Below, piece by piece: positions 1,583 through 18,777 of a DNA stretch of 64,000 bases. The translations under genes and the position numbers were made by a program. Source of the DNA: Chthoniobacterales bacterium (GTDB lineage: Bacteria > Verrucomicrobiota > Verrucomicrobiia > Chthoniobacterales > JACTMZ01). The notes below the pieces were generated by a model that was not told the origin of the DNA, searched no databases, and saw only the letters and a list, made by a program, of their open reading frames with translations. Each line of letters starts with the position of its first letter. The first letter of the stretch is position 1. Location: positions 263 through 64,262 of the forward strand of contig JAJTYZ010000114.1 of NCBI GenBank assembly GCA_021463515.1, written 5' to 3'.

Positions 1583-2253
1583 GACGTCCCTCCCTTCACC
1601 GGCGGAATCCAAAATGAAGACGTCGCACTCCGCGTATCCTTCGCGTGCTCGTAGAGCATTGTTAGCTCGATAAGCGCGGGGCGCAGCTGAGGATTTTCCC
1701 AGCGCTCCTCCCATTTCTTCGCCTTACCATCGAAAAAACGGACGCTGAGTTCTTGAAAATCTGCAACCAATTCAAGCCATGGAATATCAGCTGCCGCATT
1801 CAGCACACGCTTTGCAGCAAATTCATCTTGTGGGAAATTGGAGGCAGGTTCGAATCGTTTGAGACAAATTCTCCAACGCCCGTCGGATGTGTCTCGACGC
1901 AAGGAAAGCAGCACAATCATGTCCTCGGATTCCGGAGCGGAACGGCATGCAAGAAAGCCCGGAGCATTTCGAAGGAGAAAAAGAAATTCCGGCACCTCCC
2001 CTTTCGTCACCGGCACCGCAACAAGGCGCGTTCGCGAGGGAAGATTACGAAAATTGCTCCGCAAAATATCGGTAATATTCGTCACCTCATCTTCTCGACT
2101 TGCCCGCGTATCAATGAGCAACACCGTTTTTAACGAAGTCTGCACCACCATAAAAATTCCACTGACAAGGATGACCAACACCCCGAGAGCCACCATAACT
2201 TCGATAAGCGTCAGTCCGCTCTGCGTATGACAAGAATGATTACGGTGCCGCAT
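1579..2253 (-). CDS. gspJ: Type II secretion minor pseudopilin, GspJ-like
   Basis: N-terminus QSGLTLIEVMVALGVLVILVSG matches the prepilin cleavage/methylation motif (G-x-T-L-I-E). ATG at 2253. Position in the operon supports the call. Confidence 0.7.
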   Translation of the reverse strand: MRHRNHSCHTQSGLTLIEVMVALGVLVILVSGIFMVVQTSLKTVLLIDTRASREDEVTNITDILRSNFRNLPSRTRLVAVPVTKGEVPEFLFLLRNAPGFLACRSAPESEDMIVLLSLRRDTSDGRWRICLKRFEPASNFPQDEFAAKRVLNAAADIPWLELVADFQELSVRFFDGKAKKWEERWENPQLRPALIELTMLYEHAKDTRSATSSFWIPPVKGGTS

Positions 2254-2614
2254 AACTCCAAAGAGTTCCCATCACGCGATTGCTGTGCAGCGTGTCATGC
2301 GCTGTGACAGTAATTTTGAAAATTCCGGAAAGCACTTTTCCCTCCGAGAGACGTACTTCTTGAGGCCGAATATCGCGGTGATAACTCACGTGAAAAACAT
2401 CCGGTACAATTTCCTCCGAAGATTCCTGAGGAGGTTCGGCTAAAGCTTCATCGAGCAGACTTTGGAGATTGAGCCGCGTGTTGGTAAAGCGCTGTTGCTC
2501 GTAATCCGCATTAAGACCAGCATTCAACGATTTCACCATCCACACCACCGCCACCGAAAAAATCGAGAGAGCCAAGACAACTTCCAAAAGCATAAACGCG
2601 TGATTCGATTTCAT
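2240..2614 (-). CDS. gspI: Type II secretion minor pseudopilin, GspI-like
   Basis: Trimmed to MKSNHAFMLLEVVLALSIFSVAVVW (ATGA overlap with the upstream stop at 2611). Prepilin-type N-terminus, about 124 aa. Confidence 0.65.
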   Translation of the reverse strand: MKSNHAFMLLEVVLALSIFSVAVVWMVKSLNAGLNADYEQQRFTNTRLNLQSLLDEALAEPPQESSEEIVPDVFHVSYHRDIRPQEVRLSEGKVLSGIFKITVTAHDTLHSNRVMGTLWSYAAP

Positions 2615-3126
2615 CGGATGAAAAAGGTTTCTTCCTGATCCCATCCCGTCACCGCACTGTACTTTTGCGCGAAGTAGGAATCGTCCTTGCGAAACATCAC
2701 GCGAATCGGCTCACAAAGCCCCGTGGGAGGGAAATACCACCGATGATTTCGAGGGCGATTCCATACCTCGTTGGGCCATGTCGCTAATTCAAACGAGACA
2801 TCCTCGGACATTTGAAAATCGGAAAGAACGTCGTTTGCCTTTCCGACATTAATGCGTTCAAGGCGGAAACCTTGAGGCTGCAAAATAATTTGGTAAGGCT
2901 TCTGCTCCGCAAGGGCATTGCATCGGGCCGTGATGGCCATGGCCTCTAACTGCCGTACTGGTGCTTTAAGTTTTTCCGCCAGCAATAAACCGGAAACCTC
3001 TGGAACGGCGGCTGCAACCAACAACGTGACGATGGATAGCACAATGACGATTTCCAAAATCGTGAAGGCGAGCATTTGCCCTCGCGCCGCAAATTCGCCA
3101 AAACATTTACAATCCCTCGTTTTCAT
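2611..3126 (-). CDS. gspH: Type II secretion minor pseudopilin, GspH-like
   Basis: MLAFTILEIVIVLSIVTLLVAAAVP prepilin-type hydrophobic segment. Sits immediately after gspG. ATG at 3126. Confidence 0.65.
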   Translation of the reverse strand: MKTRDCKCFGEFAARGQMLAFTILEIVIVLSIVTLLVAAAVPEVSGLLLAEKLKAPVRQLEAMAITARCNALAEQKPYQIILQPQGFRLERINVGKANDVLSDFQMSEDVSFELATWPNEVWNRPRNHRWYFPPTGLCEPIRVMFRKDDSYFAQKYSAVTGWDQEETFFIR

Positions 3127-3132
3127 CCCACA

Positions 3133-3558
3133 CTACCAATTGCCGATATTCTTATCGTCCGTCGTCTGATTCGGCCCCAGCGACCAAAGGTCAAAACTCT
3201 CGGGATTATGCTTTCCTGGGCGGAGGTATTGATACTCACCGCCCCAAGGGTCGAGCAGGGCCTCCGCTTTCAACAACTTGGACCAATTACGAGGTTTTGG
3301 AGGCACTGTGGGAGGATCCACTAAAGCTTTAAGACCTTGTGCTGTCGTGGGAAAATTCAGATTTTGCATCTGGTAAACCTTCAATTGCGTCGAAAGGTTT
3401 TCGATATCGCTGCGCACTCGCGTGCTTTTAGCGACTTCCAGATTTCCCACGAGGTAGTAAATGCCGGCGGACATCAAAACGACGATAATCGAGAGCACGA
3501 GCATGATTTCGACGAGCGTGTACGCCGCCGCCTTATGGAGTTGAGATGATTTTTTCAT
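3133..3558 (-). CDS. gspG: Type II secretion major pseudopilin GspG
   Basis: AAYTLVEIMLVLSIIVVLMSAG... followed by LLDPWGGEYQYLRPG...FDLWSLGPN, which is typical of GspG. 141 aa. Confidence 0.85.
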   Translation of the reverse strand: MKKSSQLHKAAAYTLVEIMLVLSIIVVLMSAGIYYLVGNLEVAKSTRVRSDIENLSTQLKVYQMQNLNFPTTAQGLKALVDPPTVPPKPRNWSKLLKAEALLDPWGGEYQYLRPGKHNPESFDLWSLGPNQTTDDKNIGNW

Positions 3559-3583
3559 GGTATGTATGGATTCAATAAAAGCG

Positions 3584-4834
3584 TCATTTCCCGCGAAGCC
3601 CTGAGACCGCTTGAAAAATTCCGCCCATCATGCAGTAGGCAACGACACCCACAACGCCGGCCATAACGACAATCACCGCAGGCTGAATCATGCTCGTGAG
3701 TGCTCCAATCGCAGCATTGAGTTCTTTGTCGTAACGTGCGCCCGTCTTTTCTAAGGCCTGGGGCAAATTGCCGGTTTGTTCCCCTACCACAATCATGTCT
3801 ATAAAAACCGAAGGGAACGATTTCGTTCGAGCCATCGCACGAGAAAGGGAAGCACCCTCACCGACATCGTTAGTCACGCGACTAATAAGGCCTCGCAAAA
3901 AAACATTCGGCGTCGCGGCATTGGTGAGTTTAAGAGCACCATAAAGGGCAATCCCATTGGACGTGAGTGTGGCGAGGGTTTGAGCAAATTGTGCCAGAAA
4001 TTTTGCACGGAAAATCGGCCCCACGAGCGGAACACGGAGCTGCACGCGATCCCACCAGACCCGTCCAGATTCGGTATTAAGCAACGCTCGAAATGCAAAG
4101 GCGAGTCCGACAATCACCAAGACAATCAGCCACCAATAAGTGCCCAAAAACTTACTCGCCGCAAGAAGCACCGCAGTTGCTAAGGGCATTTTATTTCCCG
4201 AAGTTCCAAGAAGCGTTCCAAGTTGTGGGACGAGATAGCTGACAAATAAAATGATCAACAGGAGGCCGGCAAATCCGATAAATGCGGGATAGACAAGGGC
4301 ACCCACCACTTTGCTTTTGAGGTCGGCAATGAGCTTTTGATAAGCCAGTGTCCGCTGAAGAATTGCATGAAGTGCCCCACCTTGTTCCCCTGCAGCCACA
4401 AGATTGCAGAACAACTCTCCGAAGCTTGCGGAAGCCTTACGTAGAGCCGTGGAAAAATTAACACCTTCCCGAACTTCACGGCGAAGATAGGCGGAGACAT
4501 CTTTAAGAGCCGAACCTTCTTGTCGGTTCTCCATAATCCGCAAGGCCTGTTCCAGTTGTAATCCCGCCTCGAGGAGATCGCTCAGTTCTTCGGTGAAAAA
4601 CATCACCTGCTTGGCACTTAGCCGGTAACCACCTTGAGGAAGTGAGGAATGCTGGAGGTTATCCGTGGACTGATTTTGCGCGTCGTGACGCGCTTGATCA
4701 CGAAGTTTAAGCCAGAGAGGCTGAAGTTGCTCCCGACTGAGTTTATCGCAAGCCTCCGACCGAGAGCGCGCTTCAATTTCTCCTCGCATACGATGCCCCC
4801 CGCGTTGAATGGCTTCGTAGGTATAAGCTGCCAT
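3584..4834 (-). CDS. gspF: Type II secretion inner-membrane platform protein GspF
   Basis: Trimmed to MAAYTYEAIQRGG (its ATG overlaps the gspE stop by 1 nt, TAATG at 4832..4836). Duplicated GspF/PilC-type domains with three TM segments. Confidence 0.85.
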   Translation of the reverse strand: MAAYTYEAIQRGGHRMRGEIEARSRSEACDKLSREQLQPLWLKLRDQARHDAQNQSTDNLQHSSLPQGGYRLSAKQVMFFTEELSDLLEAGLQLEQALRIMENRQEGSALKDVSAYLRREVREGVNFSTALRKASASFGELFCNLVAAGEQGGALHAILQRTLAYQKLIADLKSKVVGALVYPAFIGFAGLLLIILFVSYLVPQLGTLLGTSGNKMPLATAVLLAASKFLGTYWWLIVLVIVGLAFAFRALLNTESGRVWWDRVQLRVPLVGPIFRAKFLAQFAQTLATLTSNGIALYGALKLTNAATPNVFLRGLISRVTNDVGEGASLSRAMARTKSFPSVFIDMIVVGEQTGNLPQALEKTGARYDKELNAAIGALTSMIQPAVIVVMAGVVGVVAYCMMGGIFQAVSGLRGK

Positions 4835-6558
4835 TAGTGTCCGCCCTCCTCTGCGGTAACACGGAGAATTTCCTCCACCGTAGTGACGCCTTCCAGCACC
4901 CGATCCCATCCATTATCACGCAGAACTTGCATTCCTTCTTCGATGGCGACTGCCAACAAATCGGACTGCGAACTCCTCTTCGCAATCAACTCCTGCAGAC
5001 GCGGCGTAATCATGCAAATTTCAAAAATGGCGGCACGTCCCTGATAGCCCGTTTGACGGCAAGCATCGCAGCCCACAGCACGATAAATCACTCGATAGGG
5101 AGGCAAATGAAATCCCCGACGTTCAAGGTCCGCTACGGGATAATTCACTTCCATTTTACATTCTTCGCAGAGGCGTCGGACGAGTCGTTGTGCGATAAAC
5201 GCACGCACAGCCGTGGAAACCAAGAAAGGTTCAATGCCCATATCCACAAGGCGTGTGATGCCGCCAATCGCATCGTTTGTATGCAATGTGCTAAAAACGA
5301 GGTGTCCGGTAAGAGCGGCGCGAATGGCAATTTCACCCGTCTCTAAGTCGCGCATTTCGCCGATCATGACCACATTCGGATCCCCGCGCAAAATGGCCCG
5401 AAGACCACGTGCAAATGTAAGGTCAATCTCCGGGCGAACGGCAATTTGCAAAACTCCCGGAAGCTTATTTTCCACGGGGTCTTCAATGGTAACAATCCGT
5501 CGCGATTCCTTATTGAGTACCGTAAGAAACGTGTAAAGCGATGTAGACTTTCCGCTCCCTGTGGGTCCCGTGATGAGGACAATTCCATTGGGCATCGCCA
5601 ATAATTTATCCACGCGCTCGCGATTTTTTCCATCAATCCCCAGCCGTTCAAAAGTGAACTTTTGCTGTCCCAATAAACGCAGACTTACACTTTCGCCGGT
5701 CACGGTGGGAATGGTGGCGACACGAACGTCAATAGATTGCCCTTCAAACTCGAGAGCAATACGCCCATCCTGCGGTAATCGCCGTTCGGCGATGTCGAGA
5801 TGTGACATAATTTTTACCCGCGCAACGACCGCATCTTGAAGTTTCGCAATCTGTGCAGGTACAGGCACATTGTGCAACATGCCGTCTACGCGGTAGCGAA
5901 TTCTTAAGTCCTCATGAACCGGCTCAATATGAATATCCGTGGCTCGTTCGAGAAGAGCTTCACGCATAATTTGATTCACAAATTTGACGACCGATGCTTC
6001 GGAATCATCCTGCTCATCGAGGGCTTGAACCTCATCTTTGAGGTGATCGAGAATTTCTTCATCTTCGCGCCCTTCCAACAACTCTTCAAAAGTATCTGCT
6101 CCGATACCATAGCCTCTACGCAGTGCCTGTTGAATATCGCGACGTGTGTGCATTGCCAACTCGATGGGCTGTTGAAGCGTTTGAGCGAGGCATTGCTTGG
6201 CTAACAAATCAAACGGATCAAACGTGAGAATTTGGAGGTTTTGATCGCGTTCGCCGACGACGAGTAATTGATGACGAAGGGCGAGGCGAAGCGGCAATCG
6301 TTTTTGCAATTCGCTACCGGCAAGCGTTGGTTGTGATGGCCACCACGGGAATTGGGTGGCTTTCGCCACCTGTTGAAGGAACGTCCGTTCCTCGACATCT
6401 TTTTTCTCCAAGAGAGCCTGGATGGGTGAGCGTTGTTGCGACAGGGCATTATCAACCAGAGCCGCGACGGTAGACTCACCGGCACCGGCAGAAAGGGCAG
6501 CTTCAATCAAAATGGCACGGAGTGAAAGCATGGCTGGCAATGCCAATTTGAGGGGCAT
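4834..6558 (-). CDS. gspE: Type II secretion ATPase GspE
   Basis: Walker A GPTGSGKST, Asp/His boxes (GEMRDLETGEIAIRAALTGHLVFSTLHTND) and the tetracysteine motif CEECK...CDACRQTGYQGR. ATG at 6558; a second in-frame ATG (M10) lies at 6531. Confidence 0.9.
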   Translation of the reverse strand: MPLKLALPAMLSLRAILIEAALSAGAGESTVAALVDNALSQQRSPIQALLEKKDVEERTFLQQVAKATQFPWWPSQPTLAGSELQKRLPLRLALRHQLLVVGERDQNLQILTFDPFDLLAKQCLAQTLQQPIELAMHTRRDIQQALRRGYGIGADTFEELLEGREDEEILDHLKDEVQALDEQDDSEASVVKFVNQIMREALLERATDIHIEPVHEDLRIRYRVDGMLHNVPVPAQIAKLQDAVVARVKIMSHLDIAERRLPQDGRIALEFEGQSIDVRVATIPTVTGESVSLRLLGQQKFTFERLGIDGKNRERVDKLLAMPNGIVLITGPTGSGKSTSLYTFLTVLNKESRRIVTIEDPVENKLPGVLQIAVRPEIDLTFARGLRAILRGDPNVVMIGEMRDLETGEIAIRAALTGHLVFSTLHTNDAIGGITRLVDMGIEPFLVSTAVRAFIAQRLVRRLCEECKMEVNYPVADLERRGFHLPPYRVIYRAVGCDACRQTGYQGRAAIFEICMITPRLQELIAKRSSQSDLLAVAIEEGMQVLRDNGWDRVLEGVTTVEEILRVTAEEGGH

Positions 6559-6587
6559 TCCCTTCCGCGCTCAAAGCTACCGGGATA

Positions 6588-6617
6588 AGCGGTAGCTATC
6601 TACGTGATGAGCGGTCA
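6588..6617 (+). promoter_or_regulatory. Direct-repeat box A (AGCGGTAG-N10-GATGAGCGGTCA); candidate LytTR-type operator upstream of gspE
   Basis: Reads AGCGGTAGCTATCTACGTGATGAGCGGTCA on the + strand. The AGCGG half-sites start at 6588 and 6610, a 22-bp period. It overlaps the response-regulator stop codon (6615..6617). It lies 30 nt from the gspE ATG at 6558 and 57 nt from the ATG at 6531. The proximal half-site is also the right arm of an 8-bp inverted repeat (6575..6582 / 6590..6597). Confidence 0.55.
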
Positions 6618-7301
6618 ACTAAGAGCTTGCTTAAGACTTGGCCAATAACGGCGACTCACAAGAAGTGCTTTCCCGTTACCTAAAATCACTTCGCGGCGGC
6701 TCTCGGAAATCGCTCGAATTTCACGAATGGCAGCCAAGCGAATAATGGTGCTACGATGAATTTGCATAAATTCACAAGGCATCACTTCGAGCCATTCCTT
6801 GAGGGGACGAAGCATGAGCGTCGAAGTTCCATCTCCCAAAACTAATCGCGTATAATTTCCCTCCGATTCGATGGAATCCAGCAATGTCCACTCCACACGA
6901 CGCACGGCACCTCCGAGAAGTAAAAGCAAAGTTTGAGGCGGAACGTGAGCGGCATCCCCGTGGATGCGAGCAAGTGTGTTCGCAAGTCGAGCGGGCTCTA
7001 CGGGCTTAAGGAGATAATCAAGTGCATTAACCTCAAAGGCCCGAATGGCGTATTGATCATACGCGGTGACAAACACAATGGGCGGGAGAGGTTGTGGGGC
7101 TTGGGCTAAAAAATCAAATCCGCTTTCTCCACGCAGTTGGACATCCAAAAAAATAATATCCGGCACGCAACGCTGACACAAACGAACGGCTTCCTTGATA
7201 TTCGAGGCAGCATCTATGGTTCGCACTTCGGGATGCACTGACAACAAATGCCGCATTTCTTGCCGAGCGAGAGATTCGTCATCAATGATCAAACAGCGCA
7301 T
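6615..7301 (-). CDS. LytTR-family response regulator (REC + LytTR DNA-binding domain)
   Basis: MRCLIIDDESLARQEM...DIIFLDVQLRGESGFDFL...VFVTAYDQYAIRAFEVNALDYLLKP gives a canonical receiver domain. The C-terminal part (EGNYTRLVL...MQIHRSTIIRLAAIREI) is LytTR-like. It overlaps the kinase gene by 13 nt. Confidence 0.85.
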   Translation of the reverse strand: MRCLIIDDESLARQEMRHLLSVHPEVRTIDAASNIKEAVRLCQRCVPDIIFLDVQLRGESGFDFLAQAPQPLPPIVFVTAYDQYAIRAFEVNALDYLLKPVEPARLANTLARIHGDAAHVPPQTLLLLLGGAVRRVEWTLLDSIESEGNYTRLVLGDGTSTLMLRPLKEWLEVMPCEFMQIHRSTIIRLAAIREIRAISESRREVILGNGKALLVSRRYWPSLKQALS

Positions 7302-8824
7302 GTTGAATCATTGTAGGGAATCTCAATGAGGGCGCGAACCCAGTTTTGATCGATCTGAAACTTCAATGAGGCCTCTTTCCCGTACATGAGTTGAAGGCGA
7401 TGGCGGATATTGTCCACTCCGAGATGCCGTCGAGAAGGATCTGGCGTACGCCAGATACCGGTATTTGCCACCTCGATTTTCAAATGCTGTTTTTCGACAC
7501 GAACATCAATGTGAAGGTTCATAATCCCGCTATGGACGGCAAGGCTGTGAGTTATGGCATTTTCTATTAAAGGTTGCAGAAGAAAAATCGGTATTCGTTG
7601 TTCCTCCAATCCTTCAGCCACAGCAATGACAACTTTCAAATCCTCGGGAAAACGCTGTTGCTCGATCGCCAAATACTGCCGAGCCAAAGTCATCTCTTCC
7701 CCCACCGTCGAAAAATTATCCGCAGGATCGGACAGAGTTGCCCGCATGTAGCCTGCGAGTTCCGTAACCATTTTACGCGAGGTCTCATTTGAAGCAGGCA
7801 AGGTCGCCCGCAAAGAATTGAGAGCGTTAAAAAGAAAATGCGGATTCATTTGATACCGCAGAGCGTCCAATCGAGCACGCTCTTCTTTCAACGAGATAGC
7901 AAGTGCCCGAGCCTTAGCGTGGACGAAATAGCGTTGTGCTAATTGGCGTTCCGCAACGAGTGCGGCGACGAGGAGCCCCGTTGCTGCTAACACCCAACAA
8001 AAGGCCTGGGTAAACCAAATCGCCGCTGGAACATGTTCGGGCACCATGCGTGACGCATAAAAAACAAGTGCTGCATAAACAGAGCCCATCACCGCGGCTC
8101 CCGCTGCAGCAGCACCCTGCGGACCCAACTTGACAGCGACGAGAATGAAAACCGGAAACACCAAAAATACGAAATTTTTCCCCTGGTCTAAAAAGGCAGC
8201 ACCACACGTTAAAAATGTCATGGTACTCACCCCTGCCACCCAAAGAAGCAACTCTCCATAGACATTGGAAAACACGGAAGGTCTCCGAAGTAGGAGCAGT
8301 AAAAGCGGCGAAAGCAAAATGAGTGCCGTCCCATTGGAAAAACTCCAATTCCAGATTGCCATACCGAACTGACTGAAATCCATTTTTCGCTCTACGAACA
8401 ACCAAAACGGAACAACGATTGTCCCCGGAATCGGTGCTATAAAAGATGCTGCCATCAGGGCCAGCACGGAACGCGTATGATCAAATCCACGAGCTACGCG
8501 ACCTAATTTGCGAACGATCAAGTAGCCGACTAACGCCTCCAAAACATTCCCGGTTGCTCCCACAAATGAAAACACAAGAGGCTCACCAAAGACTAAGGCC
8601 ACGATCGGAGCGGACACCCAAATCCACGGGAAAAAGCGCCAACCCAACCAGAGCAATCCCACAAGATTGATAGCGGAAGCTGGCCAAAAAATGTGCTGCG
8701 CCCAAGCAGGCAAACTATACGGCCATAATTGATCCCCAAACCAAAAGGTAAAACATACCGTCCCCGCAGAAATCAGTCCAAAGCCCAGCCCCTGCACCCA
8801 TGGATGTTTCCAAAAAGAAATCAC
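7289..8824 (-). CDS. Sensor histidine kinase, LytS/YehU-type (MASE1-like membrane domain + His_kinase + HATPase)
   Basis: About 300 aa of polytopic Trp-rich N-terminal membrane domain resembling MASE1. This is followed by LRYQMNPHFLFNALNSL (a hallmark of the PF06580-type H-box) and an ATPase region (LLQPLIENAITHS). The only available start is GTG at 8824. Confidence 0.8.
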   Translation of the reverse strand: MISFWKHPWVQGLGFGLISAGTVCFTFWFGDQLWPYSLPAWAQHIFWPASAINLVGLLWLGWRFFPWIWVSAPIVALVFGEPLVFSFVGATGNVLEALVGYLIVRKLGRVARGFDHTRSVLALMAASFIAPIPGTIVVPFWLFVERKMDFSQFGMAIWNWSFSNGTALILLSPLLLLLLRRPSVFSNVYGELLLWVAGVSTMTFLTCGAAFLDQGKNFVFLVFPVFILVAVKLGPQGAAAAGAAVMGSVYAALVFYASRMVPEHVPAAIWFTQAFCWVLAATGLLVAALVAERQLAQRYFVHAKARALAISLKEERARLDALRYQMNPHFLFNALNSLRATLPASNETSRKMVTELAGYMRATLSDPADNFSTVGEEMTLARQYLAIEQQRFPEDLKVVIAVAEGLEEQRIPIFLLQPLIENAITHSLAVHSGIMNLHIDVRVEKQHLKIEVANTGIWRTPDPSRRHLGVDNIRHRLQLMYGKEASLKFQIDQNWVRALIEIPYNDSTCAV

Positions 8825-8986
8825 GGCTCACTCTTTTGATCTCCTCCACAGCATGGCAAGTTATTTCCTACGCGAAGACGCATAAGAAATGGATGCCGCA
8901 TTTTCCGTTCGTCCAATTTTGCCATGCCGTTCATCCCTGCCTCCTCGGACGCTGCGATGCAACCTGAGAGTAAGTCCCATTTCTCT

Positions 8987-11900
8987 ATGAAAATGAGGCA
9001 TTCATTCTTGTCGTTTTTTGCAGTGTTAACCTTGACCGTTTGCCCGCAACTTTTCGCGGAAGCTTTTCATGTGGATCGTTGCGGGGTGTGGGATGCGCGT
9101 TTTCCGGGCCATCGAGAAGCAGAGGATTTTGCCATCATGCAATTTCCCATGGTGCTGAGCAGTCGGCCCGATATGCGGCGAGTGGATGTATTTTTCGAAT
9201 ATCGCGGAGATTTGCCCATGAAACAATCGCAGGACGGGAAGCCTCCAGCGACGGCATCGCTCAATGGCAAGCCCATCCACGTAGATCTGCGCTTTGGAAA
9301 TTCCGGGGCGACGCAATGGGTGAGAGCAAAGTTAAAGCTTCCGGACAAAGACATGAAATACGCGGAAAAAGGGGCACCCAATGATCTCCGAATCAGCCTC
9401 CATGCCTCGGATGGCACGTCCTTTGAAAAGCAGATCATCATCCCGGGGCTTACCCTTTCCTCGATGGATCAGCGTATCCTCGATGGCAAAGCCGCCGATA
9501 TTAATAGCTTCAACTACGCGATGGCGGTTAAAATTCCGCCTAACAAACTCGAATTTTCCAAGGGCATTCCGAAAATCGGTAAAGTTGGATTTGGCTTTCA
9601 ATTAAACGGCAAGTTGACTTTTTACCCGTTCACGAAGAAAAAAATTAATGACACGTATGGTGGCGTAAATCTCATAGCCGGCGAGAAAAAGTACGCCATT
9701 AAGGTCGGCAGCAAAAGCTCTGCCACATGGAGAAAAGGGGAATGGGATTACGACGAATGGAAAGCCTATATGGCGTTTTCACAAACGATTGAAATTTGGC
9801 AGCTCTCCTTTTTCGGGACATTGCCGCCGGAGACCAAAAAAGTCATTGAAGCGATTCCCTTTGCCGGGCCGGATATCCGCAAAGGATTAGAAGGTTTTAA
9901 GGCTTCGTTGGAAGCCGAGCCAACTCTCACAGGTGCTGCCAGCCTCGGGTTAAAGCCGGAAGATCCTTTTATTAAAAACTGGACGCTCAATGGAGAAATG
10001 GATGTTCGGCTTTCCCTTAATATGGCACTGGAAATTACGGCTTTGGGAAAATTCGGCGCAAGAGCACTTTTGGGCGGGAAAATTGACTTGGGCGTTCAGT
10101 CCCCCGCGACCCCGACTTTTTATACCTGCAAAGGTCAAATCTATGTCGGTGCCGACCTTTACTTTGCCTGCTTCGAATCCAATTTCCGCTATGCGCTGCT
10201 GGAATTTAACCTCAGTGCCGCCCCAAAAAATATCTTGCCGCCTATCAACACTTCGAAATCCAACGAACTCACGGCACCGCTTTTTCAGATTATGAAAATC
10301 CCCGAGGAAGATGAATTTTTTCCGCTTCAAGGTCTCTCACAAAACTCCGTAGAGCACGTGAAGCCATCGCAAGAAATCACCGCATTGGCGAATCACTTCC
10401 GTCAAATATCCGCCCCCGCAATGCCTCAGGCAATGACCTTGCAATTAGGAAATGACCCCCATGACATCCAAATTAAAAGCTCTGCCACATTACCCATTGT
10501 CAATCATCTCTCGCCACTGGCATGGCCAAGCATGGCTGCCTCGCAGGATGCACAACTCGTAATTTTCGGCGTGGACACCCGTGAGTCGAATGTGAAGCCC
10601 CGCAATCCCGTGCAATTCAGCAAACTCCTGTGGACACTCTGCGATGCCAATGGGAATTGGTCCGCGCCGCAACCGATGCCTGCCGGGAATGACGCTGCCC
10701 AAATGATGGCTTCTGCCGCCTACAACAATGCAGATTCCTTTCTTGCTGTGTGGCAACAAATGCGTGACCCAAATTTTCAGGGAGAGGACCCAGGAAGCTG
10801 GATGAACCAAAATGAAATCGTCGCTGCAAAATTTGATCTGAAGGAAAAAACATGGACGCTGCAACCCATTTCCAAGTCCACTGCAGGTACCGGCGATTAT
10901 TCTCCGCAGATCGCCATGGGCGCAACCATGCAGGGCAAAGCCGTTCCCGCCCTCGCTGTCTGGCTCCATGGAAAAATTCCGCCTATCAGCGCGTCAGGCG
11001 AAACTTCCACCGAGCCTGCAAACGTAACTTTCCATTGGTCCCGCTACCACAACAGCATTTGGAGCACGCCGGATTTCTCGACGACCGATGGAAATATGCA
11101 GGCTCTCAAAGCACCCAAGGGACTCCTGGCGTTTGATCTCGCCGCCACGGAGAATGCCAATATTTTGGGTGGCGTACTCGTCTATTCCTTCGTCGCAGCC
11201 GACGGCACGACGAAACTTGCCTGCCGTTATTTCTACGAACAACTTCCTCACGATTCTCAGCAACAGTCCCACCCGCCCATTTGGGGGCCCGAAGTCATCA
11301 TTGCCGATCAAGGAATCAATCTCGATCCGATTGTCGAAATGCGCCAAGTGAACAGCGGCTTTATCGTGTGGAATCAAAATGGCAATCTCGTGAGCACAGA
11401 ATTTCGTCTCAGCACAAGCACGTCGAAATTTGACAAGCTAACGGTGATTCGAAAGGCCCCAACCGGCAGTGAGTTTTACAACATTCATGCCATCCCATTT
11501 AAAGTCGGCGAATGGTCGGGTGGCAAACTTAAGGACCAAGCGATCGCGTGGAATGAACAGACGGATGATGGCCCGAGTATTGTGCTTACGGTTTATGATG
11601 CATACACCAGCACATGGAGTGAGCCCTTCTCCCTCACACCCGGAGATGCCTTGGAATCACTTTATGATCTTAAGAGCGATCGAAATGGCAACCTCATGCC
11701 GCTCTATGTTCATACCGACTTGAGCTATGAGAACGTAAAGACTCAGGATGAAAATGGGAATGCCGTACAAGTCGAGAGCGCACCGGTTCCGGAAGCCGAA
11801 AGCCTACGCATCGGAAAATTCCGCCCTTTGCGAGCTGTTGGTTTTGCATCCAATGGATTATCCACCACCTCGGAGGAGTTTATGGGAGGCACCAAGGTTA

Positions 11901-12746: not shown

Positions 12747-15704
12747 TTAGTTCTCTGCTGCGGAGAAGGTGAATTTGTAGGTATCCGCAGGAAGCGGGCC
12801 CGAGCCGTCGGCTTTCATCACTCGATCGGTATTGAGCAGGAGTCGTCCGACATCTTGCCGACCCAGCCGCCAAATACGCAGCTTATCGCCATTCTTAGCA
12901 ACAACGGGAATCGTGCGTCCGTCTTTTACCACAGCCGTGACCGGCGTCCCCAAGAATGTTCCCAGCGCATCGTCGCCTTGCACGCGGTAAAATACCTTGG
13001 CCAAATCCTTGCCCGTGTCCACATAGACCACAGGCAAATTACTCCAGCGGCCTACCGTGGGACTCGGGCTATAAGTCCCCGTACCCGTGACAGGCTTCGT
13101 GCCTGTTTCAAGGTCGTAGAGATCAAAGCCGTCCTTCGATACATTCTTGATGGTGAATTTGCCATTGGCTTCCTTCACGCCGATCACTTGATCAATCAGC
13201 ACCTTCTCATTCTCCGCGAGGTGATGCGGCGCATCAGTCGTCACGTGAATGGGGGTGCCACTTTTAACGAACTTAATGGCACTTGGCAGCGTGTCTGTTT
13301 CATCTCCAGAGAACTTCGCATCGGCTGTTACCGGCCCATAAGGTGCTTGGATGGCCCACACGTTTTTATTCACCAACCCTTTTTCTCCGGCAACGGTGAG
13401 AATCAGGTTGTTGGCCCCACCCGCCCCAATATCGGCGGTGTCATCATCTACGGAGAAGCCATAGCCCGAGAAACCAAGTTCCACATGAACAAACCAGACG
13501 AAAGGATCGAGGTTAAAGACATTGTACGTCTGACCTCCCGTGGGCTCGGCGGGATCGGGATACCAGTGCAAATGCTTGCCTTTTGCATCCACAACATCGG
13601 GATATTTGGTGAAGTCGCTCACCCCGCGTAAAACGGATTTGATGAGATCACGAATCATCGCAATGGCCATCTGACCATCCACCGAATCTTTGGCGGGTTG
13701 ATCAAATATGTAGCCCATATTAGCACCAATAATGTCCTGCATGAATTTGCACTGGCTGTCGTTGTTTTTGTGCCCAATCTGATTCATGGAAGCCATGATG
13801 AGATAAACCGCTTGCGAAAATTCGTAAGGACGACGCCACTCATCTTCCTTCGCAAAATTGAATTTGAGGAGCGGATATCCGGGCTGCCCTGCTTTGGGAG
13901 TCCAAATCAATGGATTGTAAGTCGGTGGCTCAATGGTAAACTTTTGATTCAGCGCAGGATTTCTTGCCACTTGACTTAGAACAGCAGATTTCTTATCGCT
14001 GGCGACTTGGAGAATGACTGCCGCCCCTTGATGTGGCCCCGTTTCTGTCATCGCATCATCCAATCCAGGCCCCTTCACCGCCATCCCTGGTACCAAGCCG
14101 GGTACGGGCTGAGTAAAAGAAATCGTCGCAGAACGAACTTCCATCGAACCTTGAACCGTAATGGGCGCCGTGGGCGCATTGGGATTTTTATCCTTCCAAT
14201 GATCCAAATAATACTGCGCCCATGAATACCAAAGTCGCAGCATCGTATCCGCCGCATAATCATTAACCGGACGCGTAAAAACATACGTCGTCATATCGCT
14301 TGTGTTGGCGAGCGGCTTGCTCAAGGTGACGGTGTAAGCTTTTGGATCCTTAGAAATCACGGTCGTACCCTCTTGGATGGGATTGGGCTTGGGTTTTTCG
14401 GGTGCCGGGTTGGCCGTGACAATCATGCCCGGCTGAATAAAATCCATCTTCGCTTTTCCTTCCTGAGGGTTGAGGCTCAATACTGCATTTCCTTTGGGGC
14501 TTGTTGTCGCCGAGTTGCCCAAAGCCAAAAATTTGGCACCCGTTCCTCCGCTAGAAAGCATGAACTTTACCGTCGTCCAATCCCCCGCTTTCTCATAACT
14601 CCCCGGCGTTGCCTTGAGCGGACTTTGAGCAAAGATATTGGCGCCGGATGGAATTTTTATGGGCTGCTTCGCATCCCCCGAAGGATTAGGGATATTGTAA
14701 AAAGGCCACCCTTTCCCTCCAAAATACTGTCCCAATAACTTGTTGGGTTTCGTTTTATCACCCTCCGCCGTAAACTCACGAATTTTAGCTTGGAGAGATT
14801 CAATGTTGCCAATGGAACCCGTCCAGCCATTGGGTTCAGGCTGCGAACCCGGCGTCCAACGTCCATTTTTATTGGGATCGGGCATCGCTCCAGAAATCGG
14901 CGGGAGCACCCAAGCATCCGTCACCTCCATCGCCAATGGGAGATAAAGATTGTCCACATTCGACACATCATAATTAATCAATGTCACCAACTCGGTATCC
15001 GGAATTTGATCCTTCGTCTTAAGTTTAACCATGTATTCATGATCGCGGATCGTCCACTCCGCGAGTTGGTCTTCGGAATCATCATTGGGTGCCTCCGCCA
15101 AAGTATCCGTCGCCCGATACCACATCACCACACCATCTTTGCTCTGCGCCGGCGCAATGGCGCGGATGGAAGCCGGACGATATCGCAACGGATTGGGATC
15201 GGTCGTCGTTAGGTACGTGCCATCGGTGCCAATACCAATGCGTGCGCCATTCCAAAATACCAAAGGCAATGACACCGTGATGCTTTGCCCCGCCTTCAAT
15301 CCGAAATAACAAGTGTCACCTTCCTTGTACCCAATATAGCCACGGTATTCCTTATCCGTGGGATCGTAGGGATCATAGAGCCCTTCGGTGGAACCTTCCG
15401 CTGTTGTTTTAGAATTCGGATTACGCATGATCGGATACACCGTCTTGTCGGAATTATTTACGATCGTCAGCGTCTTGTTGGGAATCGTATTCCCCTGCGG
15501 GTCCTTTCCGTAAGTAAGGACTTTTCCCGTTAATGTCCCCGGCCCCGGATTGGGATCCCAAGGCTGCGGCTTACTTGGATCCGTCACTCCCGTGGTGCCG
15601 GTAGGCATCGGGATTTTCTCCTCCGCTCTCGCAGGTGAAAAAAACAAGGACGTGCTGGCTGCAAGCACAGCACCCATGAGCAGGCGATGACGTTTTGCTT
15701 TCAT
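12747..15704 (-). CDS. Large secreted protein of unknown function (about 985 aa)
   Basis: The track ORF starts at TTG 15725. I trimmed it to the ATG at 15704, giving MKAKRHRLLMGAVLAASTSLFFSPARA|EE, a good signal peptide. Pro/Thr/Gly-rich beta-type sequence. A C-terminal stretch (IHVTTDAPHHLAENEKVLIDQVIGVKEANGKFTIKNVSKDGFDLYD) resembles small E1-FCCH-like beta-barrel modules seen in phage and surface proteins (low confidence). Confidence 0.75.
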   Translation of the reverse strand: MKAKRHRLLMGAVLAASTSLFFSPARAEEKIPMPTGTTGVTDPSKPQPWDPNPGPGTLTGKVLTYGKDPQGNTIPNKTLTIVNNSDKTVYPIMRNPNSKTTAEGSTEGLYDPYDPTDKEYRGYIGYKEGDTCYFGLKAGQSITVSLPLVFWNGARIGIGTDGTYLTTTDPNPLRYRPASIRAIAPAQSKDGVVMWYRATDTLAEAPNDDSEDQLAEWTIRDHEYMVKLKTKDQIPDTELVTLINYDVSNVDNLYLPLAMEVTDAWVLPPISGAMPDPNKNGRWTPGSQPEPNGWTGSIGNIESLQAKIREFTAEGDKTKPNKLLGQYFGGKGWPFYNIPNPSGDAKQPIKIPSGANIFAQSPLKATPGSYEKAGDWTTVKFMLSSGGTGAKFLALGNSATTSPKGNAVLSLNPQEGKAKMDFIQPGMIVTANPAPEKPKPNPIQEGTTVISKDPKAYTVTLSKPLANTSDMTTYVFTRPVNDYAADTMLRLWYSWAQYYLDHWKDKNPNAPTAPITVQGSMEVRSATISFTQPVPGLVPGMAVKGPGLDDAMTETGPHQGAAVILQVASDKKSAVLSQVARNPALNQKFTIEPPTYNPLIWTPKAGQPGYPLLKFNFAKEDEWRRPYEFSQAVYLIMASMNQIGHKNNDSQCKFMQDIIGANMGYIFDQPAKDSVDGQMAIAMIRDLIKSVLRGVSDFTKYPDVVDAKGKHLHWYPDPAEPTGGQTYNVFNLDPFVWFVHVELGFSGYGFSVDDDTADIGAGGANNLILTVAGEKGLVNKNVWAIQAPYGPVTADAKFSGDETDTLPSAIKFVKSGTPIHVTTDAPHHLAENEKVLIDQVIGVKEANGKFTIKNVSKDGFDLYDLETGTKPVTGTGTYSPSPTVGRWSNLPVVYVDTGKDLAKVFYRVQGDDALGTFLGTPVTAVVKDGRTIPVVAKNGDKLRIWRLGRQDVGRLLLNTDRVMKADGSGPLPADTYKFTFSAAEN

Positions 15705-15765
15705 AAATAATTTCGAGGCCGTCAAAATTCCACGGCTTTTCCAAAAGAAAAATCACTTCGTGATT

Positions 15766-15795
15766 AGCGGCAGTTAAGAGCGGGATGAGCGGTCA
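15766..15795 (+). promoter_or_regulatory. Direct-repeat box B (AGCGGCAG-N10-GATGAGCGGTCA); candidate LytTR-type operator
   Basis: Reads AGCGGCAGTTAAGAGCGGGATGAGCGGTCA. Half-sites at 15766 and 15788 (22-bp period). It lies 62 nt upstream of the ATG (15704) of the 985-aa secreted protein gene, in the same relative orientation as box A to gspE. It is 196 nt from the divergent regulator gene. Confidence 0.55.
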
Positions 15796-15990
15796 TCAGC
15801 ACCTCCCACCCAAAGAAAATCAGTGCTTGCGCTCCGAAGAAATCACTAAAAATGATCCGCAATTTCGCACGCATCTCACATCCGATCTCATCTCCTCCCC
15901 AAAATTGAATCGCATCGGCGCAGCCAAAGAAAACGAACCTTTCCTACCATCCATCCGCAATTTTCGACGCTTCGTCACATTTCCATTGAG

Positions 15991-16866
15991 GTGATGTTTT
16001 TCTTCGGAGACTTCAATGCGATCAGACATTTCATGCGTTTGAATCACCCAAGTTGTAAGCGTTATAGAAGGGAGTCCGCCGAAGGAAAAAAAGATCCGGT
16101 GTCCTCCTCCCCTTCCACGTCGCCCCAAAGCCAGCTTCCTTTCCGCGCTGTGTTGCTTGATGACAATCCAAATGATCGCGATCACGTGCGTGCCATGCTG
16201 CGACGCCATCCTTCGATCCAACTTGCCGGTGAAGCAACCACGTTGAAGCAGGCTCTCGAAATGATAAGTCAGAAACGAATTGATGTTATGTTCCTCGAGA
16301 GCGAAATCAAAGGACGCTTTATCCTCGAAGAATGCCCCCTGATTCCTGCTGCCGTGAAATTAATTTTCCTCACCAACCACCAAATGGCCGCCGTGCGTGC
16401 CTTTGAATTGGAAGCTCTGGACTTTCTTCTCAAACCCCTGTCGTCCTCTCGCCTCAACGAAACCATACGTCGCCTTCTTCGCATTGATTGGCAACGAACA
16501 TCAACGCCACCCCTTTTGAAAACGGACAACAACGCGTCGGCACTTATCCCCTTTGAACGCGGACGTCGCGGTGCCTCACTCAGCGAAATTTCCCTCATTC
16601 AAGCATTCGGCAATTACACTCGCGTCACCTTCGACAAAGGTAAAAGCGAAATCGTTTTGCGCTCACTTGCAAAATGGGAGCAGTTGTTGCCCATGCCTCC
16701 CTTTCTTCGCGTGCATCGCAATGCCGTCGTCCACACAAACAAGGTTCGTGCTCTCGATGACATCAATGGCTGCAGTGTTCTGCGCTTAGACAACAATGAG
16801 GAAACCATCCCCGTAAGTCGCCGCTGTTTGCCGGAAGTTCGCCAAGCTCTTTTTGCCCAGCACTAA
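15991..16866 (+). CDS. Atypical LytTR-family response regulator (phospho-acceptor Asp replaced by Glu)
   Basis: The receiver domain aligns with the neighbouring regulator: RAVLLDDNPNDR...RIDVMFLESEIKG (against DIIFLDVQLRG)...LIFLTNHQMAAVRAFELEALDFLLKP. The C-terminal part is LytTR-like (FGNYTRVTF...LRVHRNAVVHTNKV). The start is uncertain: GTG 15991, ATG 15994 or ATG 16033. Confidence 0.75.
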   Translation: MMFFFGDFNAIRHFMRLNHPSCKRYRRESAEGKKDPVSSSPSTSPQSQLPFRAVLLDDNPNDRDHVRAMLRRHPSIQLAGEATTLKQALEMISQKRIDVMFLESEIKGRFILEECPLIPAAVKLIFLTNHQMAAVRAFELEALDFLLKPLSSSRLNETIRRLLRIDWQRTSTPPLLKTDNNASALIPFERGRRGASLSEISLIQAFGNYTRVTFDKGKSEIVLRSLAKWEQLLPMPPFLRVHRNAVVHTNKVRALDDINGCSVLRLDNNEETIPVSRRCLPEVRQALFAQH

Positions 16867-16868
16867 TT

Positions 16869-16898
16869 TAACCGCTCATCCAATCTGCGACTACCGCT
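16869..16898 (-). promoter_or_regulatory. Direct-repeat box C (AGCGGTAG-N10-GATGAGCGGTTA, on the minus strand); candidate LytTR-type operator upstream of the NHLP precursor
   Basis: The minus strand reads AGCGGTAGTCGCAGATTGGATGAGCGGTTA. It starts 3 nt after the regulator stop (16866). The AGCGGTAG half lies proximal to, and 60 nt upstream of, the precursor ATG at 16958. Confidence 0.55.
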
Positions 16899-16957
16899 TG
16901 TCCCCTTTGCGTCGCCTTCCGCGTCGGAGGCTCTCATGCTCCCGTTGTGTCCGTGTC

Positions 16958-17272
16958 ATGAACACCCACAATCCGCCCAACTTTTCTGAAATGACGCGTC
17001 GAGAAATCGAAGATTATCTTATCGAATTAGCGATGGTGAATCCTCTGTTTCGCGAACAACTTCTTGCCGAACCCACACGCGTTCTACGTGATCTCGGCCT
17101 TCCCGTAGGCGACAATGTGCATATCTGCGTTCTCGAAGAAGAACCGCAGTCCTTTTACCTCGTGCTGCCACGTGTACTGGAAGACCGAGAAAACGCCCAA
17201 GACTCCTGCGCCTCTACGTATCCCGCGAACAACACCACCGATATGTTTCGCTTTTTTCATGGCTACGCATAA
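16958..17272 (+). CDS. NHLP (nitrile-hydratase leader peptide) family RiPP precursor, 104 aa
   Basis: MNTHNPPNFSEMTRREIEDYLIELAMVNPLFREQLLAEPTRVLRDLGLPVGDNVHICVLEEEPQSFYLVLPRV matches the NHLP leader pattern (xxLExxLIxxAxxxxxFRxxLLxxPxxxL...G..LP....V.V.EE....YLVLP). This is followed by a 31-aa tail, LEDRENAQDSCASTYPANNTTDMFRFFHGYA. The track ORF starts at TTG 16853, which would run through box C; I prefer ATG 16958, with ATG 16991 as an alternative. Confidence 0.75.
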   Translation: MNTHNPPNFSEMTRREIEDYLIELAMVNPLFREQLLAEPTRVLRDLGLPVGDNVHICVLEEEPQSFYLVLPRVLEDRENAQDSCASTYPANNTTDMFRFFHGYA

Positions 17273-17290
17273 ATCGAGGGAATCAAAAAC

Positions 17291-18550
17291 TCACCGACGC
17301 ATTTTGAAATCTGCCATGATTTCAGCGGGTGCGTGCCCCATTTGGAGAAGCTCCCCCATGCGGCGCATCGCGGGTGCCGTATGATTGAAAAAACGTTTGT
17401 AAGCACGGCAAAGATAATTCAGCCCCGCTTCTCCATCCGGCGTGCGAATAAAACGATGCTTCGGACACTCACCATGACATAAAGAACGCACCTCACATTC
17501 TCGACAATAACGCGGCAGGGTGTCGGCTTTGTCATTGCCAAATTTTTGCTGGAACTCCGAATTTACCATCGCGCCCAGTGTATGATTCAAAATATTTCCG
17601 AGCTTGAAATTCGGGTACACGTAATGATCGCACGAATACACATCGCCATTGTGCTCCATCGCCAAAGCCGTCCCGCATTTTTCCTCAAAATAGCAAAGTC
17701 CGCCCCCCACCCCCATCGTATTCCCCAGCGTCACATCGAAAATTTGCACAAATGTCCGCCCCACATCGCGCTTAATCCATTCGTCAAAAATCGTGCAAAG
17801 AAACTCCCCATATTGTTTTGGTTCCACACTCCAATCGGTCACGGGCATTCGCGCCGTGCCTTCCTCATCCGCTCGCGGCGGCATCGCCAAATCCAGTCCT
17901 AACTTTTTCGCCTCTGCATCCGGCAAACGCTCGACGAGCGGAATAAATTGAATAAACCCCGATCCCGTGTCCCGCAGAAATCGGTAAACTTCCAACGGCT
18001 TGAAGGAATTGATCCGATTCACCACCGTGAGCGTGTTAAAGGCCACGTGATGTTTTTTAAGAATCCGCAATCCCGTGATCACCTGCTCATACGACCCTCC
18101 CCCTTTTTTATCCACGCGATAGGCATCATGCAAACGAGGCGGCCCATCGAGGCTCAGACCCACGAGAAATTGATGCTCCGCAAAAAACGTCGCCCATTCC
18201 TCATTCAACAATGTGCCATTGGTTTGAAACGCATTGAAAATGGTTTTGCCGTGAGCATATTTTTTCTGCAAAGCCACGACCTTTCGAAAAAAATTAACGC
18301 CCAGCAATGTCGGCTCCCCTCCCTGCCACGCAAAACTCACCTCTGGCACATCCTGCTGCTCTATGTATTGACGGATATACGCCTCAAGCACCTCATCAGT
18401 CATTTTGAAATTCTCATTCGAGGGAAACAGCCGCTCCTTTTCCAAATAAAAGCAATACTTACAATCCAGATTACAAAGCGGCCCAATAGGCTTCGTCATC
18501 ACATGAAACGCGCGCCCCGCCGACGACGTATGAAAAGTGGATGCTGTCAT
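17291..18550 (-). CDS. Radical SAM/SPASM enzyme of the anaerobic sulfatase-maturase (anSME/AslB) family
   Basis: FHVMTKPIGPLCNLDCKYCFYLEKE (CxxxCxxC plus the AslB-type context), GGEPTL, and a C-terminal Cys-rich SPASM region (CYFEEKCG...CDHY...CRECEVRSLCHGECPKHR). Trimmed to the ATG at 18550 (the track start at 18559 is GTG). Confidence 0.85.
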   Translation of the reverse strand: MTASTFHTSSAGRAFHVMTKPIGPLCNLDCKYCFYLEKERLFPSNENFKMTDEVLEAYIRQYIEQQDVPEVSFAWQGGEPTLLGVNFFRKVVALQKKYAHGKTIFNAFQTNGTLLNEEWATFFAEHQFLVGLSLDGPPRLHDAYRVDKKGGGSYEQVITGLRILKKHHVAFNTLTVVNRINSFKPLEVYRFLRDTGSGFIQFIPLVERLPDAEAKKLGLDLAMPPRADEEGTARMPVTDWSVEPKQYGEFLCTIFDEWIKRDVGRTFVQIFDVTLGNTMGVGGGLCYFEEKCGTALAMEHNGDVYSCDHYVYPNFKLGNILNHTLGAMVNSEFQQKFGNDKADTLPRYCRECEVRSLCHGECPKHRFIRTPDGEAGLNYLCRAYKRFFNHTAPAMRRMGELLQMGHAPAEIMADFKMRR

Positions 18551-18777
18551 GTTGCCCACAGCATACTCAATAGCTCTTGGTTGAACGAGGCGGCTTTATT
18601 CTTGGAGGGAAATCGGGATGTAGGCTCCTCCGGAAATTGTCTTTGGGTACCGCACCCATCTCGAGTGCTGTTTCCCGCGCCCTGAATGAGCGCGATATTG
18701 ATGCGCTCCATGGGAAGACACCTGACACGCCCTGAACTTGGCCTTTAAAAGCTCCTGACGAACTATCGGCGTTCGAT

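Follow-up and report, generated by a model that had tools for sequence, protein, structure and literature searches.

A LytTR response regulator with glutamate at the phospho-acceptor position, conserved across a Chthoniobacterales clade and set among paired boxes and an NHLP-leader peptide gene

Aspartate-less receivers, defined as receiver domains that lack at least one catalytic residue (PMC12632262, PMC4395418), have been described in bacteria, plants and fungi. Such pseudo-receivers make up several percent of receiver domains, and the switching of the bacterial ones is largely unknown (PMC12632262). Glutamate is the commonest natural replacement of the acceptor, found in 26% of cases (PMC4395418; PMC12632262), while the second acidic residue of the site is kept in just 29% overall (PMC4395418). 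Here we describe a LytTR response regulator of this class, encoded in a 64,000-nucleotide (nt) stretch of a Chthoniobacterales bacterium (contig JAJTYZ010000114.1, positions 263 to 64,262), which we call the window; the protein, hereafter the Glu-type regulator, carries Glu where the phospho-acceptor Asp is expected. We assign a probability of roughly 60% to the reading that it is a kinase-independent pseudo-receiver regulator, held in an active-like form and acting at paired boxes. Like Chlamydia ChxR, the plant pseudo-response regulators and fungal Rim15, it joins a receiver fold bearing Glu to a DNA-binding output and an orphan gene. In contrast to those proteins, its output domain is LytTR rather than of the OmpR/PhoB or NarL types, all other residues of the site are kept, and close relatives switch between Glu and Asp. 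Receivers in which Glu replaces Asp already form a known class, so the finding is not of a new kind, and Glu for Asp alone is no surprise to a two-component specialist. What is new is the LytTR output, the otherwise fully preserved site with its Glu/Asp toggling, and the setting in Verrucomicrobia beside an NHLP peptide, its exporter and a type II secretion system (T2SS). A 2025 minireview with 20 characterised bacterial atypical regulators does not contain the words LytTR, LytR or AgrA (PMC12632262).

Three further systems invite comparison. AlgR of Pseudomonas aeruginosa, which works with the LytS-type kinase AlgZ/FimS, recognises a 9-bp site, CCGTTCGTC or CCGTTTGTC, that is also the core of the boxes found here; its kinase is of the class (PF06580) seen in the window, it controls pilin-like secretion and pilus genes, and its engineered D54E form acts as a phosphomimetic in a LytTR regulator (PMC5790918, PMC4064291), the Glu being natural in our case. 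In contrast, AlgR has both Asp and a cognate kinase, the Glu-type regulator is about 30% identical to AlgR-like proteins, and AlgR sites are often single or irregularly spaced where the boxes described here form strict 21/22-bp pairs. The Firmicutes circuits ComCDE, BlpRH, PlnABCD and Agr share with our loci a Gly-Gly-leader peptide gene, a C39 ABC exporter, a LytTR regulator and paired repeats ahead of the peptide gene, suggesting autoinduction; the pln system has two LytTR regulators for one regulon, and no PDB entry matches the model of the Glu-type regulator better than full-length ComE (4cbv). The present loci differ from them in the NHLP-type leader, the diderm Verrucomicrobium host, the HlyD component of the exporter (with or without an outer-membrane factor), a kinase that is MASE1/LytS-type rather than HPK10 when present, a regulator beside the peptide gene that has no phospho-Asp, and a signalling role of the peptide that is hypothetical. 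The NHLP bacteriocin export system supplies the best-matching models (TIGR03793, TIGR03794, TIGR03796/TIGR03797) for neighbouring genes in related loci, yet here an adjacent maturase is mostly missing, and the window has only a peptide gene without a Gly-Gly (GG) site and no exporter. Among the papers searched, none joins NHLP with LytTR.

An earlier note on this DNA, made from the letters alone, claimed that Glu replaces the phospho-acceptor Asp while the acidic pair (LLDD), the Thr (FLT) and the Lys (LLKP) are retained, and both parts of the claim agree with our results. BLASTP of the two LytTR regulators in the window pairs DVMFLESEIKG with DIIFLDVQLRG, and phmmer against solved receivers pairs the query ‘fle’ with the ‘flD’ of the Staphylococcus aureus LytR REC domain (6m8o), MrkE (2qv0), CheY and XynC. 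An AlphaFold2 model of the 255-aa form built with 51 sequences (mean pLDDT 86) has five strands and five helices in order, and places Glu directly after strand b3, the Asp-Asp pair after b1, the Thr at the end of b4 and the Lys after b5. Full-length ComE, the LytR REC domain (TM 0.84) and the LytTR domain 3d6w are its best PDB matches by Foldseek. The column is the same in all three alignment methods and in the structural model, and none of them brings a genuine Asp into the acceptor position. LLDD, FLT and F(-3)LLKP are all present, the last of these including the aromatic switch residue. The domain thus has the receiver fold, the acidic pair, the Thr and the Lys, lacks the phosphorylatable Asp at the end of b3, and falls within the definition of an aspartate-less receiver given above. 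A single third-position transversion would turn the GAG into an Asp codon.

In the long open reading frame (ORF), PF00072 matches residues 55–159 (E 1e-10, 42.2 bits against a Pfam cutoff of 30.2) and PF04397 residues 197–287 (E 9.8e-16, 58.2 bits against 22.6). The BtsR/LytR equivalogs NF008677 and NF010684 are not reached, with 91.2 against 246 bits and 67.3 against 375 bits, respectively. A PDB sequence search of the LytTR domain matched 3d6w only, and anchoring the DNA-contact residues on AgrA was unsuccessful, as the approximate AgrA fragment aligned poorly.

A search of 5.8 billion proteins returned about 52 orthologs of the Glu-type regulator at 53–99% identity, which named sources and a GTDB scan place in Chthoniobacterales, within Chthoniobacteraceae and Terrimicrobiaceae; at 50% clustering the whole Glu-type clade forms one cluster. 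Among the window protein and its orthologs (n = 53), the acceptor column holds Glu in 48 and Asp in five, with no other residue. The nearest other LytTR regulator representatives (n = 148) have Asp in 145, Glu in one and another residue in two, and Glu is absent both from the orthologs of the canonical window regulator (Asp in all 46) and from more distant matches to that protein (Asp in all 71). Mean pairwise identity in the clade is 62% for the receiver, 71% for the LytTR domain and 17% for the N-terminal tail. The Thr is retained in 49 of 50 members, the Lys and the Phe/Tyr switch residue in 50 of 50 each, and the acidic pair almost always. Judged from these alignments, the receiver is under purifying selection and not decaying, and Glu is a fixed trait of the clade. 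Neighbour joining places the five Asp forms among Glu forms at two points of a tree whose topology is unsupported, and the number of Asp/Glu switches is therefore uncertain.

Two side observations concern the same site. Of 45 Glu-type orthologs, 44 place Ser or Thr directly after the acceptor (codon 16300–16302 in the window), where the five Asp-type ones have Ala, Val, Leu, Pro or Thr; Glu and the following Ser/Thr are possibly a coupled change. A sister clade (P0054–P0060; e.g. L006 10001–10771) has kept the Asp, lost the acidic pair and gives no PF00072 match, in the same peptide and exporter context, as if phosphorylation had been disabled there a second time and independently.

The gene environment was compared across 15 distinct related loci. 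No kinase gene adjoins the Glu-type gene in the window or in most of these loci, and nine of them (L001, L002, L004, L006, L007, L009, L010, L016 and L018) have none within 10 kb. In the window the neighbours are a 992-aa secreted protein on the minus strand without a Pfam match, the NHLP peptide gene and an anaerobic sulfatase maturase, as the claim of the earlier note that no kinase gene is adjacent would have it; the two-component arrangement of a cognate kinase next to its regulator is absent here for the Glu-type gene.

The intergenic regions between regulator and peptide gene share two CCGYTYRTCC 10-mers with a 22-bp period, i.e. a 12-bp spacer. We built a weight matrix from 21 boxes of these regions and scanned for pairs at 21–23 bp; the three window pairs outside the peptide promoter are independent of the training set. 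The window contains four pairs, compared with 0.03 expected from shuffles, all of them intergenic and pointing at the downstream gene, and seven of its ten strong single boxes fall in these pairs. Unrelated LytTR loci yielded five pairs in 737 kb. Each window pair ends 50–56 nt ahead of what, by our reading of the sequence, is a plausible ATG: M10 of T2SSE, M22 or M24 of the 1197-aa ORF, M8 of the 992-aa ORF, and the peptide ATG. The peptide gene is preceded by a pair in every peptide locus, and in related loci pairs stand ahead of the same gene families. LytTR targets are typically two imperfect direct repeats of 8–13 bp about 12 bp apart (PMC4064291), a norm that the present layout fits, and the pairs are highly enriched near the Glu-type gene and its conserved neighbours. 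The four boxed promoters define a putative regulon of the T2SS operon and the 1197-aa, 992-aa and peptide genes.

Two classes of pair can be proposed. Pairs at 22 bp with boxes ending in TCC lie 5′ of peptide, large-protein, T2SS and lanthipeptide genes. Pairs at 21 bp with boxes ending in TCA lie 5′ of the Glu-type gene in L007, L009, L010 (e.g. 9864–9894) and L011, more weakly in L014 and L015, and also 5′ of autotransporter genes beside the canonical pair in L101 and L103. The latter are giant PATR-repeat genes encoding 1869–2351 aa that follow the canonical pair in two Chthoniobacterales metagenome-assembled genomes (L101 10714–17845, L103 10712–20708).

Since the rest of the pocket is intact, a phosphomimetic-like, kinase-independent protein is the simplest explanation of these data. 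With Glu for Asp and the rest of the site kept, the receiver would take no phosphoryl group from a histidine kinase; the protein would be permanently active-like and competent to bind DNA, and its output would be set by abundance instead of phosphorylation. It would bind the CCGYTYRTCC repeats with their 12-bp spacer ahead of the four targets. Several points weigh against this picture. D-to-E substitution alone is insufficient in CheY, PhoB and Spo0A, and the activity of ChxR is independent of its Glu (PMC4395418). With their full active site, the five Asp-carrying orthologs could accept a phosphoryl group, from acetyl phosphate or a kinase encoded elsewhere, for instance. Boxes are also found beside the canonical pair in loci with no Glu-type gene within 10 kb (L101–L103), by which the canonical regulator could be the only box binder. 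The provisional split into 21-bp and 22-bp classes rests on about 25 sites. Finally, the boxes of the regulator's own promoter are degenerate in the window and its peptide has no GG, from which the local circuit may be partly decayed.

The MASE1 kinase and its Asp-type LytTR partner would belong to the same circuit. In L011 and L015 the MASE1 kinase, the Asp-type regulator, the Glu-type regulator and the peptide gene are contiguous in this order; in L013 the kinase and the two regulators are adjacent. Four more pairs of Glu-type and canonical orthologs share a contig, judged by matching lengths (3873, 4572, 33 265 and 37 756 nt), and in the window the two regulators lie 7 kb apart. The canonical pair is found without a Glu-type gene within 10 kb in L101–L103. 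Taken with the two box classes, this synteny of the Glu-type gene with the MASE1 kinase and the Asp-type paralog may mean that the two regulators act in a cascade or exert control jointly. In a possible cascade, the phosphorylated canonical regulator would act at 21-bp boxes, including those in the promoter of the relatives' Glu-type gene, and the Glu-type regulator would act next, at 22-bp boxes. A proposal of the earlier note, a phosphorylation-independent paralog that competes or cooperates with the kinase-coupled regulator, is partly supported: on its first part by the clade-wide Glu in an intact site and the mostly kinase-less loci, and on the link to the canonical protein by the shared synteny and by one paired-box family near either gene.

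The same arrangement bears on an alternative that we consider unlikely, in which the Glu-type protein would play a modulating part instead of being the main activator. It would share boxes, or pair up in mixed dimers, with the canonical regulator in its phosphorylated form, and so set a basal level or damp the response to the kinase, just as PlnC and PlnD of the Lactobacillus plantarum bacteriocin locus work on shared repeats. These two proteins have opposite functions. The adjacency of the genes in L011, L013 and L015, the four further shared contigs and the 7-kb distance in the window agree with such a role, as do the GNYTR, HR(N/S) and (S/G)R motifs that the LytTR domains of both paralogs contain and the occurrence of one box family beside either gene; a single regulon is described as served by the two LytTR regulators PlnC and PlnD (PMC4064291). 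However, where the Glu-type gene occurs with the exporter and boxed promoters, a canonical pair is mostly absent from the surrounding 10 kb, and an identity of only about 30% speaks against simple mixed dimers.

Two observations were made alongside this comparison. In L011, the stretch 1307–7076, directly 5′ of the string of MASE1 kinase, canonical and Glu-type genes, holds a row of six lanthipeptide precursor genes with NHLP leaders, together with a LanM synthetase (TIGR03897, 351 bits); a box pair stands ahead of these genes at 1307–1338. A scan of metagenome contigs with an alignment of four canonical regulators gave 80 loci that included one ortholog, on the short contig L021; none of the 80 has a Glu-type gene, a peptide gene or the large proteins, which makes them useless for co-occurrence statistics. 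Orthologs of the 992-aa and 1197-aa proteins and the T2SS operon recur across the related loci.

The closest partner of the Glu-type gene, which the earlier note missed, is not a kinase. The most conserved neighbours are the downstream NHLP-leader peptide gene and its exporter, and the peptide gene directly downstream is the most constant of all, in 11 of the 15 loci (e.g. L010 10869–11189 and L011 10864–11184). Ten orthologous peptides have an NHLP leader, an (A/S/V)GG site and a core of 12–15 aa, such as VSSQAGMFRFFKGYA, in which (M)F(R/Q)FF(K/R)GY, a C-terminal motif common to two peptide families, is followed by a single last residue. The core is pheromone-like in size, and the ortholog peptides tested pass the TIGR03793 cutoff with 62–65 bits. 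The window peptide retains a leader and the MFRFFHGYA end, yet it scores below the family cutoff and has no GG, whereas its ten orthologs have both features; no GG site was found in any of the three frames when a frameshift rescue was checked. A HlyD, C39-ABC and ABC export trio adjoins in eight loci, in some of which the exporter includes an outer-membrane factor, and NHLP bacteriocin export models give its best matches: the HlyD gene scores 195 bits against a cutoff of 156 (TIGR03794), and the two ABC subunits (TIGR03796/TIGR03797) stay below their equivalog cutoffs. No exporter is found within the 64-kb window. The peptide gene has no adjoining maturase in most loci. A radical SAM/SPASM gene that converges on it in the window (17291..18559, minus strand) was rejected as a candidate maturase: its scores exceed the cutoffs of two anaerobic sulfatase maturase equivalogs and it does not recur beside the regulator in other loci, so that it probably has nothing to do with the peptide.

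These genes raise the prospect, which we regard as rather doubtful, of a peptide quorum-sensing circuit that works without a kinase: the NHLP peptide would be cut and exported by the C39 ABC protein and read by the Glu-locked LytTR regulator through peptide binding or through expression level, with the T2SS and its large cargo as output. A narrower form of the idea, and an improbable one in our view, makes the pseudo-receiver a ligand-binding domain that senses the mature neighbouring peptide after export, Gly-Gly cleavage and re-uptake, free of any kinase and similar to RRNPP systems. The order of regulator and peptide gene is the most constant in the comparison and a box pair always stands ahead of the peptide gene; the short core with its conserved end, the NHLP-type exporter genes in eight loci, and the lack of a modification enzyme or kinase from most loci would suit a peptide receptor as well. 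Yet there is no evidence of peptide uptake genes, the membrane MASE1 kinase with its own regulator offers a conventional sensor candidate in several loci, the window copy has lost GG and exporter while its regulator and boxes are intact, and the pairs of regulator and peptide are too few for a covariation test.

Other covalent control of the receiver, by methylation or an acyl-phosphate on the Glu or by phosphorylation of Ser/Thr elsewhere, would make the protein neither constitutive nor ligand-controlled, and we hold it to be very improbable. Glu methylation and phosphorylation have been raised as theoretical options (PMC4395418), and the Ser/Thr that follows Glu in nearly all Glu-type orthologs could be pointed to; bacterial signalling offers no known case of a phosphorylated Glu (PMC4395418), and no gene for a methyltransferase or Ser/Thr kinase is a conserved neighbour. 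Only the unclear 5′ start of the ORF and the decay seen in the peptide gene and promoter of the window might suggest that the Glu stems from faulty sequencing or misalignment, or that it marks a pseudogene in decay. This reading is refuted by the presence of Glu in 48 of 53 proteins including a 99%-identical one from an independent assembly, by the agreed column, by the conserved receiver and by an ORF that is full-length and colinear with its orthologs up to the final residues.

The start of the gene was less clear. The earlier note gave the protein an N-terminal extension of about 45 aa and called its start uncertain; this extension is probably not translated, because of where orthologs start, the matching length, the promoter alignment and the concentration of divergence. 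Orthologs are 245–262 aa long, with N-termini that align with the 255-aa form and place 13–24 aa of a variable Ser/Pro/Ala-rich tail ahead of the conserved PFRAVLLDD. GAAGGA lies 12 nt 5′ of the GTG at 16099, the likely start. The stretch 15947–15993, which takes in the putative starts GTG 15991 and ATG 15994, aligns to a promoter block of L007, L009, L010, L011, L014 and L015 that sits about 90–110 nt 5′ of the relatives' start codons and consists of a box, 11 nt, a second box and then AATTYCNTTGRRG. Of the differences from the 99%-identical relative, three substitutions and an indel lie within the first 36 codons; the other 255 account for a single substitution. The N-terminal extension of the 15991 ORF is thus very probably an artefact of ORF calling, and ATG 16033 may be an alternative start. 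The coordinates of all features are collected in Table 1.

Table 1. Positions of the Glu-type regulator, its site residues, the paired boxes and associated genes in the window
Feature	Position	Strand	Remarks
Glu-type LytTR regulator, listed ORF	15991..16866	+	REC and LytTR domains
Glu-type regulator, most likely coding sequence	16099..16866	+	GTG start, 255 aa; short S/P-rich tail, REC, linker, LytTR
In-frame upstream ORF extension, probably untranslated 5′ leader and promoter	15991..16098	+	Promoter-block alignment; divergence from 99% relative
Acidic pair Asp-Asp codons after strand b1, retained	16159..16164	+	Alignment and model
GAG codon, Glu at phospho-acceptor position	16297..16299	+	Residue 103 of long ORF, 67 of 255-aa form
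Conserved Thr codon at end of b4, retained	16372..16374	+	Alignment and model
Conserved Lys codon (LLKP) after b5	16432..16434	+	Invariant in clade; alignments
LytTR DNA-binding domain	16579..16851	+	PF04397; Foldseek TM 0.76–0.81 to 3d6w
Relic of the regulator's own promoter, degenerate 21-bp-spaced pair	15947..15990	+	Half-site CGCTTCGTCA at 15968–15977 good, then conserved ATTTCCATTGAGG block
Box pair CCGCTCATCC-N12-CCGCTTGTCC, 5′ of peptide gene	16872..16903	+	Same pair in 10 orthologous loci
NHLP-leader peptide gene, 104 aa	16958..17272	+	C-terminal MFRFFHGYA; TIGR03793 E 1e-12, 47.7 bits, below cutoff 50.9
Box pair 5′ of 992-aa secreted-protein gene (12747..15725, -)	15761..15792	-	Equivalents in L001, L002, L007, L009, L014, L016
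Box pair 5′ of 1197-aa secreted-protein gene	8905..8936	+	True start probably ATG 8987 or 8993
Box pair 5′ of type II secretion operon (T2SSE 4834..6558, -)	6583..6614	-	Same arrangement in L007, L014, L102
Canonical Asp-containing LytTR response regulator	6615..7301	-	Paralog; 28% identical over whole length
MASE1/LytS-type (PF06580) histidine kinase	7289..8824	-	Overlaps and is co-oriented with canonical regulator

The clade offers a natural experiment in which only Asp has changed to Glu, with Asp relatives, a sister clade disabled in a different way, a canonical paralog, and defined candidate sites and targets. If the protein is simply a constitutive activator, it is a well-documented, modest addition to a known class. 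If the kinase-free peptide circuit proves true, Chthoniobacterales would have quorum sensing of a so far undescribed kind. The findings also hint at a possible peptide-signal-controlled secretion regulon in Verrucomicrobia. To our knowledge, almost no cell-cell signalling has been characterised in that group.

Some minor points concern the genes and DNA around the regulator. The 1197-aa and 992-aa secreted proteins have no Pfam domain. Their listed starts, 8924 and 15725, and that of T2SSE, 6558, are probably too far upstream: a box overlaps ATG 8924, signal-peptide-like sequences begin at internal Met residues near 8987/8993 and 15704, and T2SSE has an internal Met near 6531. A sigma-70 consensus scan of 15700–17400 gave nothing useful. 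The 18-nt motif ATCCGCAATTTYSRMCGC was tried as a regulon-wide box and rejected, its two good copies (15855 and 15953) being a local duplication. They lie in a 21-nt direct repeat (15855–15875 and 15953–15973) upstream of the regulator, whose copies are 81% identical and 98 nt apart; the repeat includes a degenerate box and looks like a local duplication of part of the promoter.

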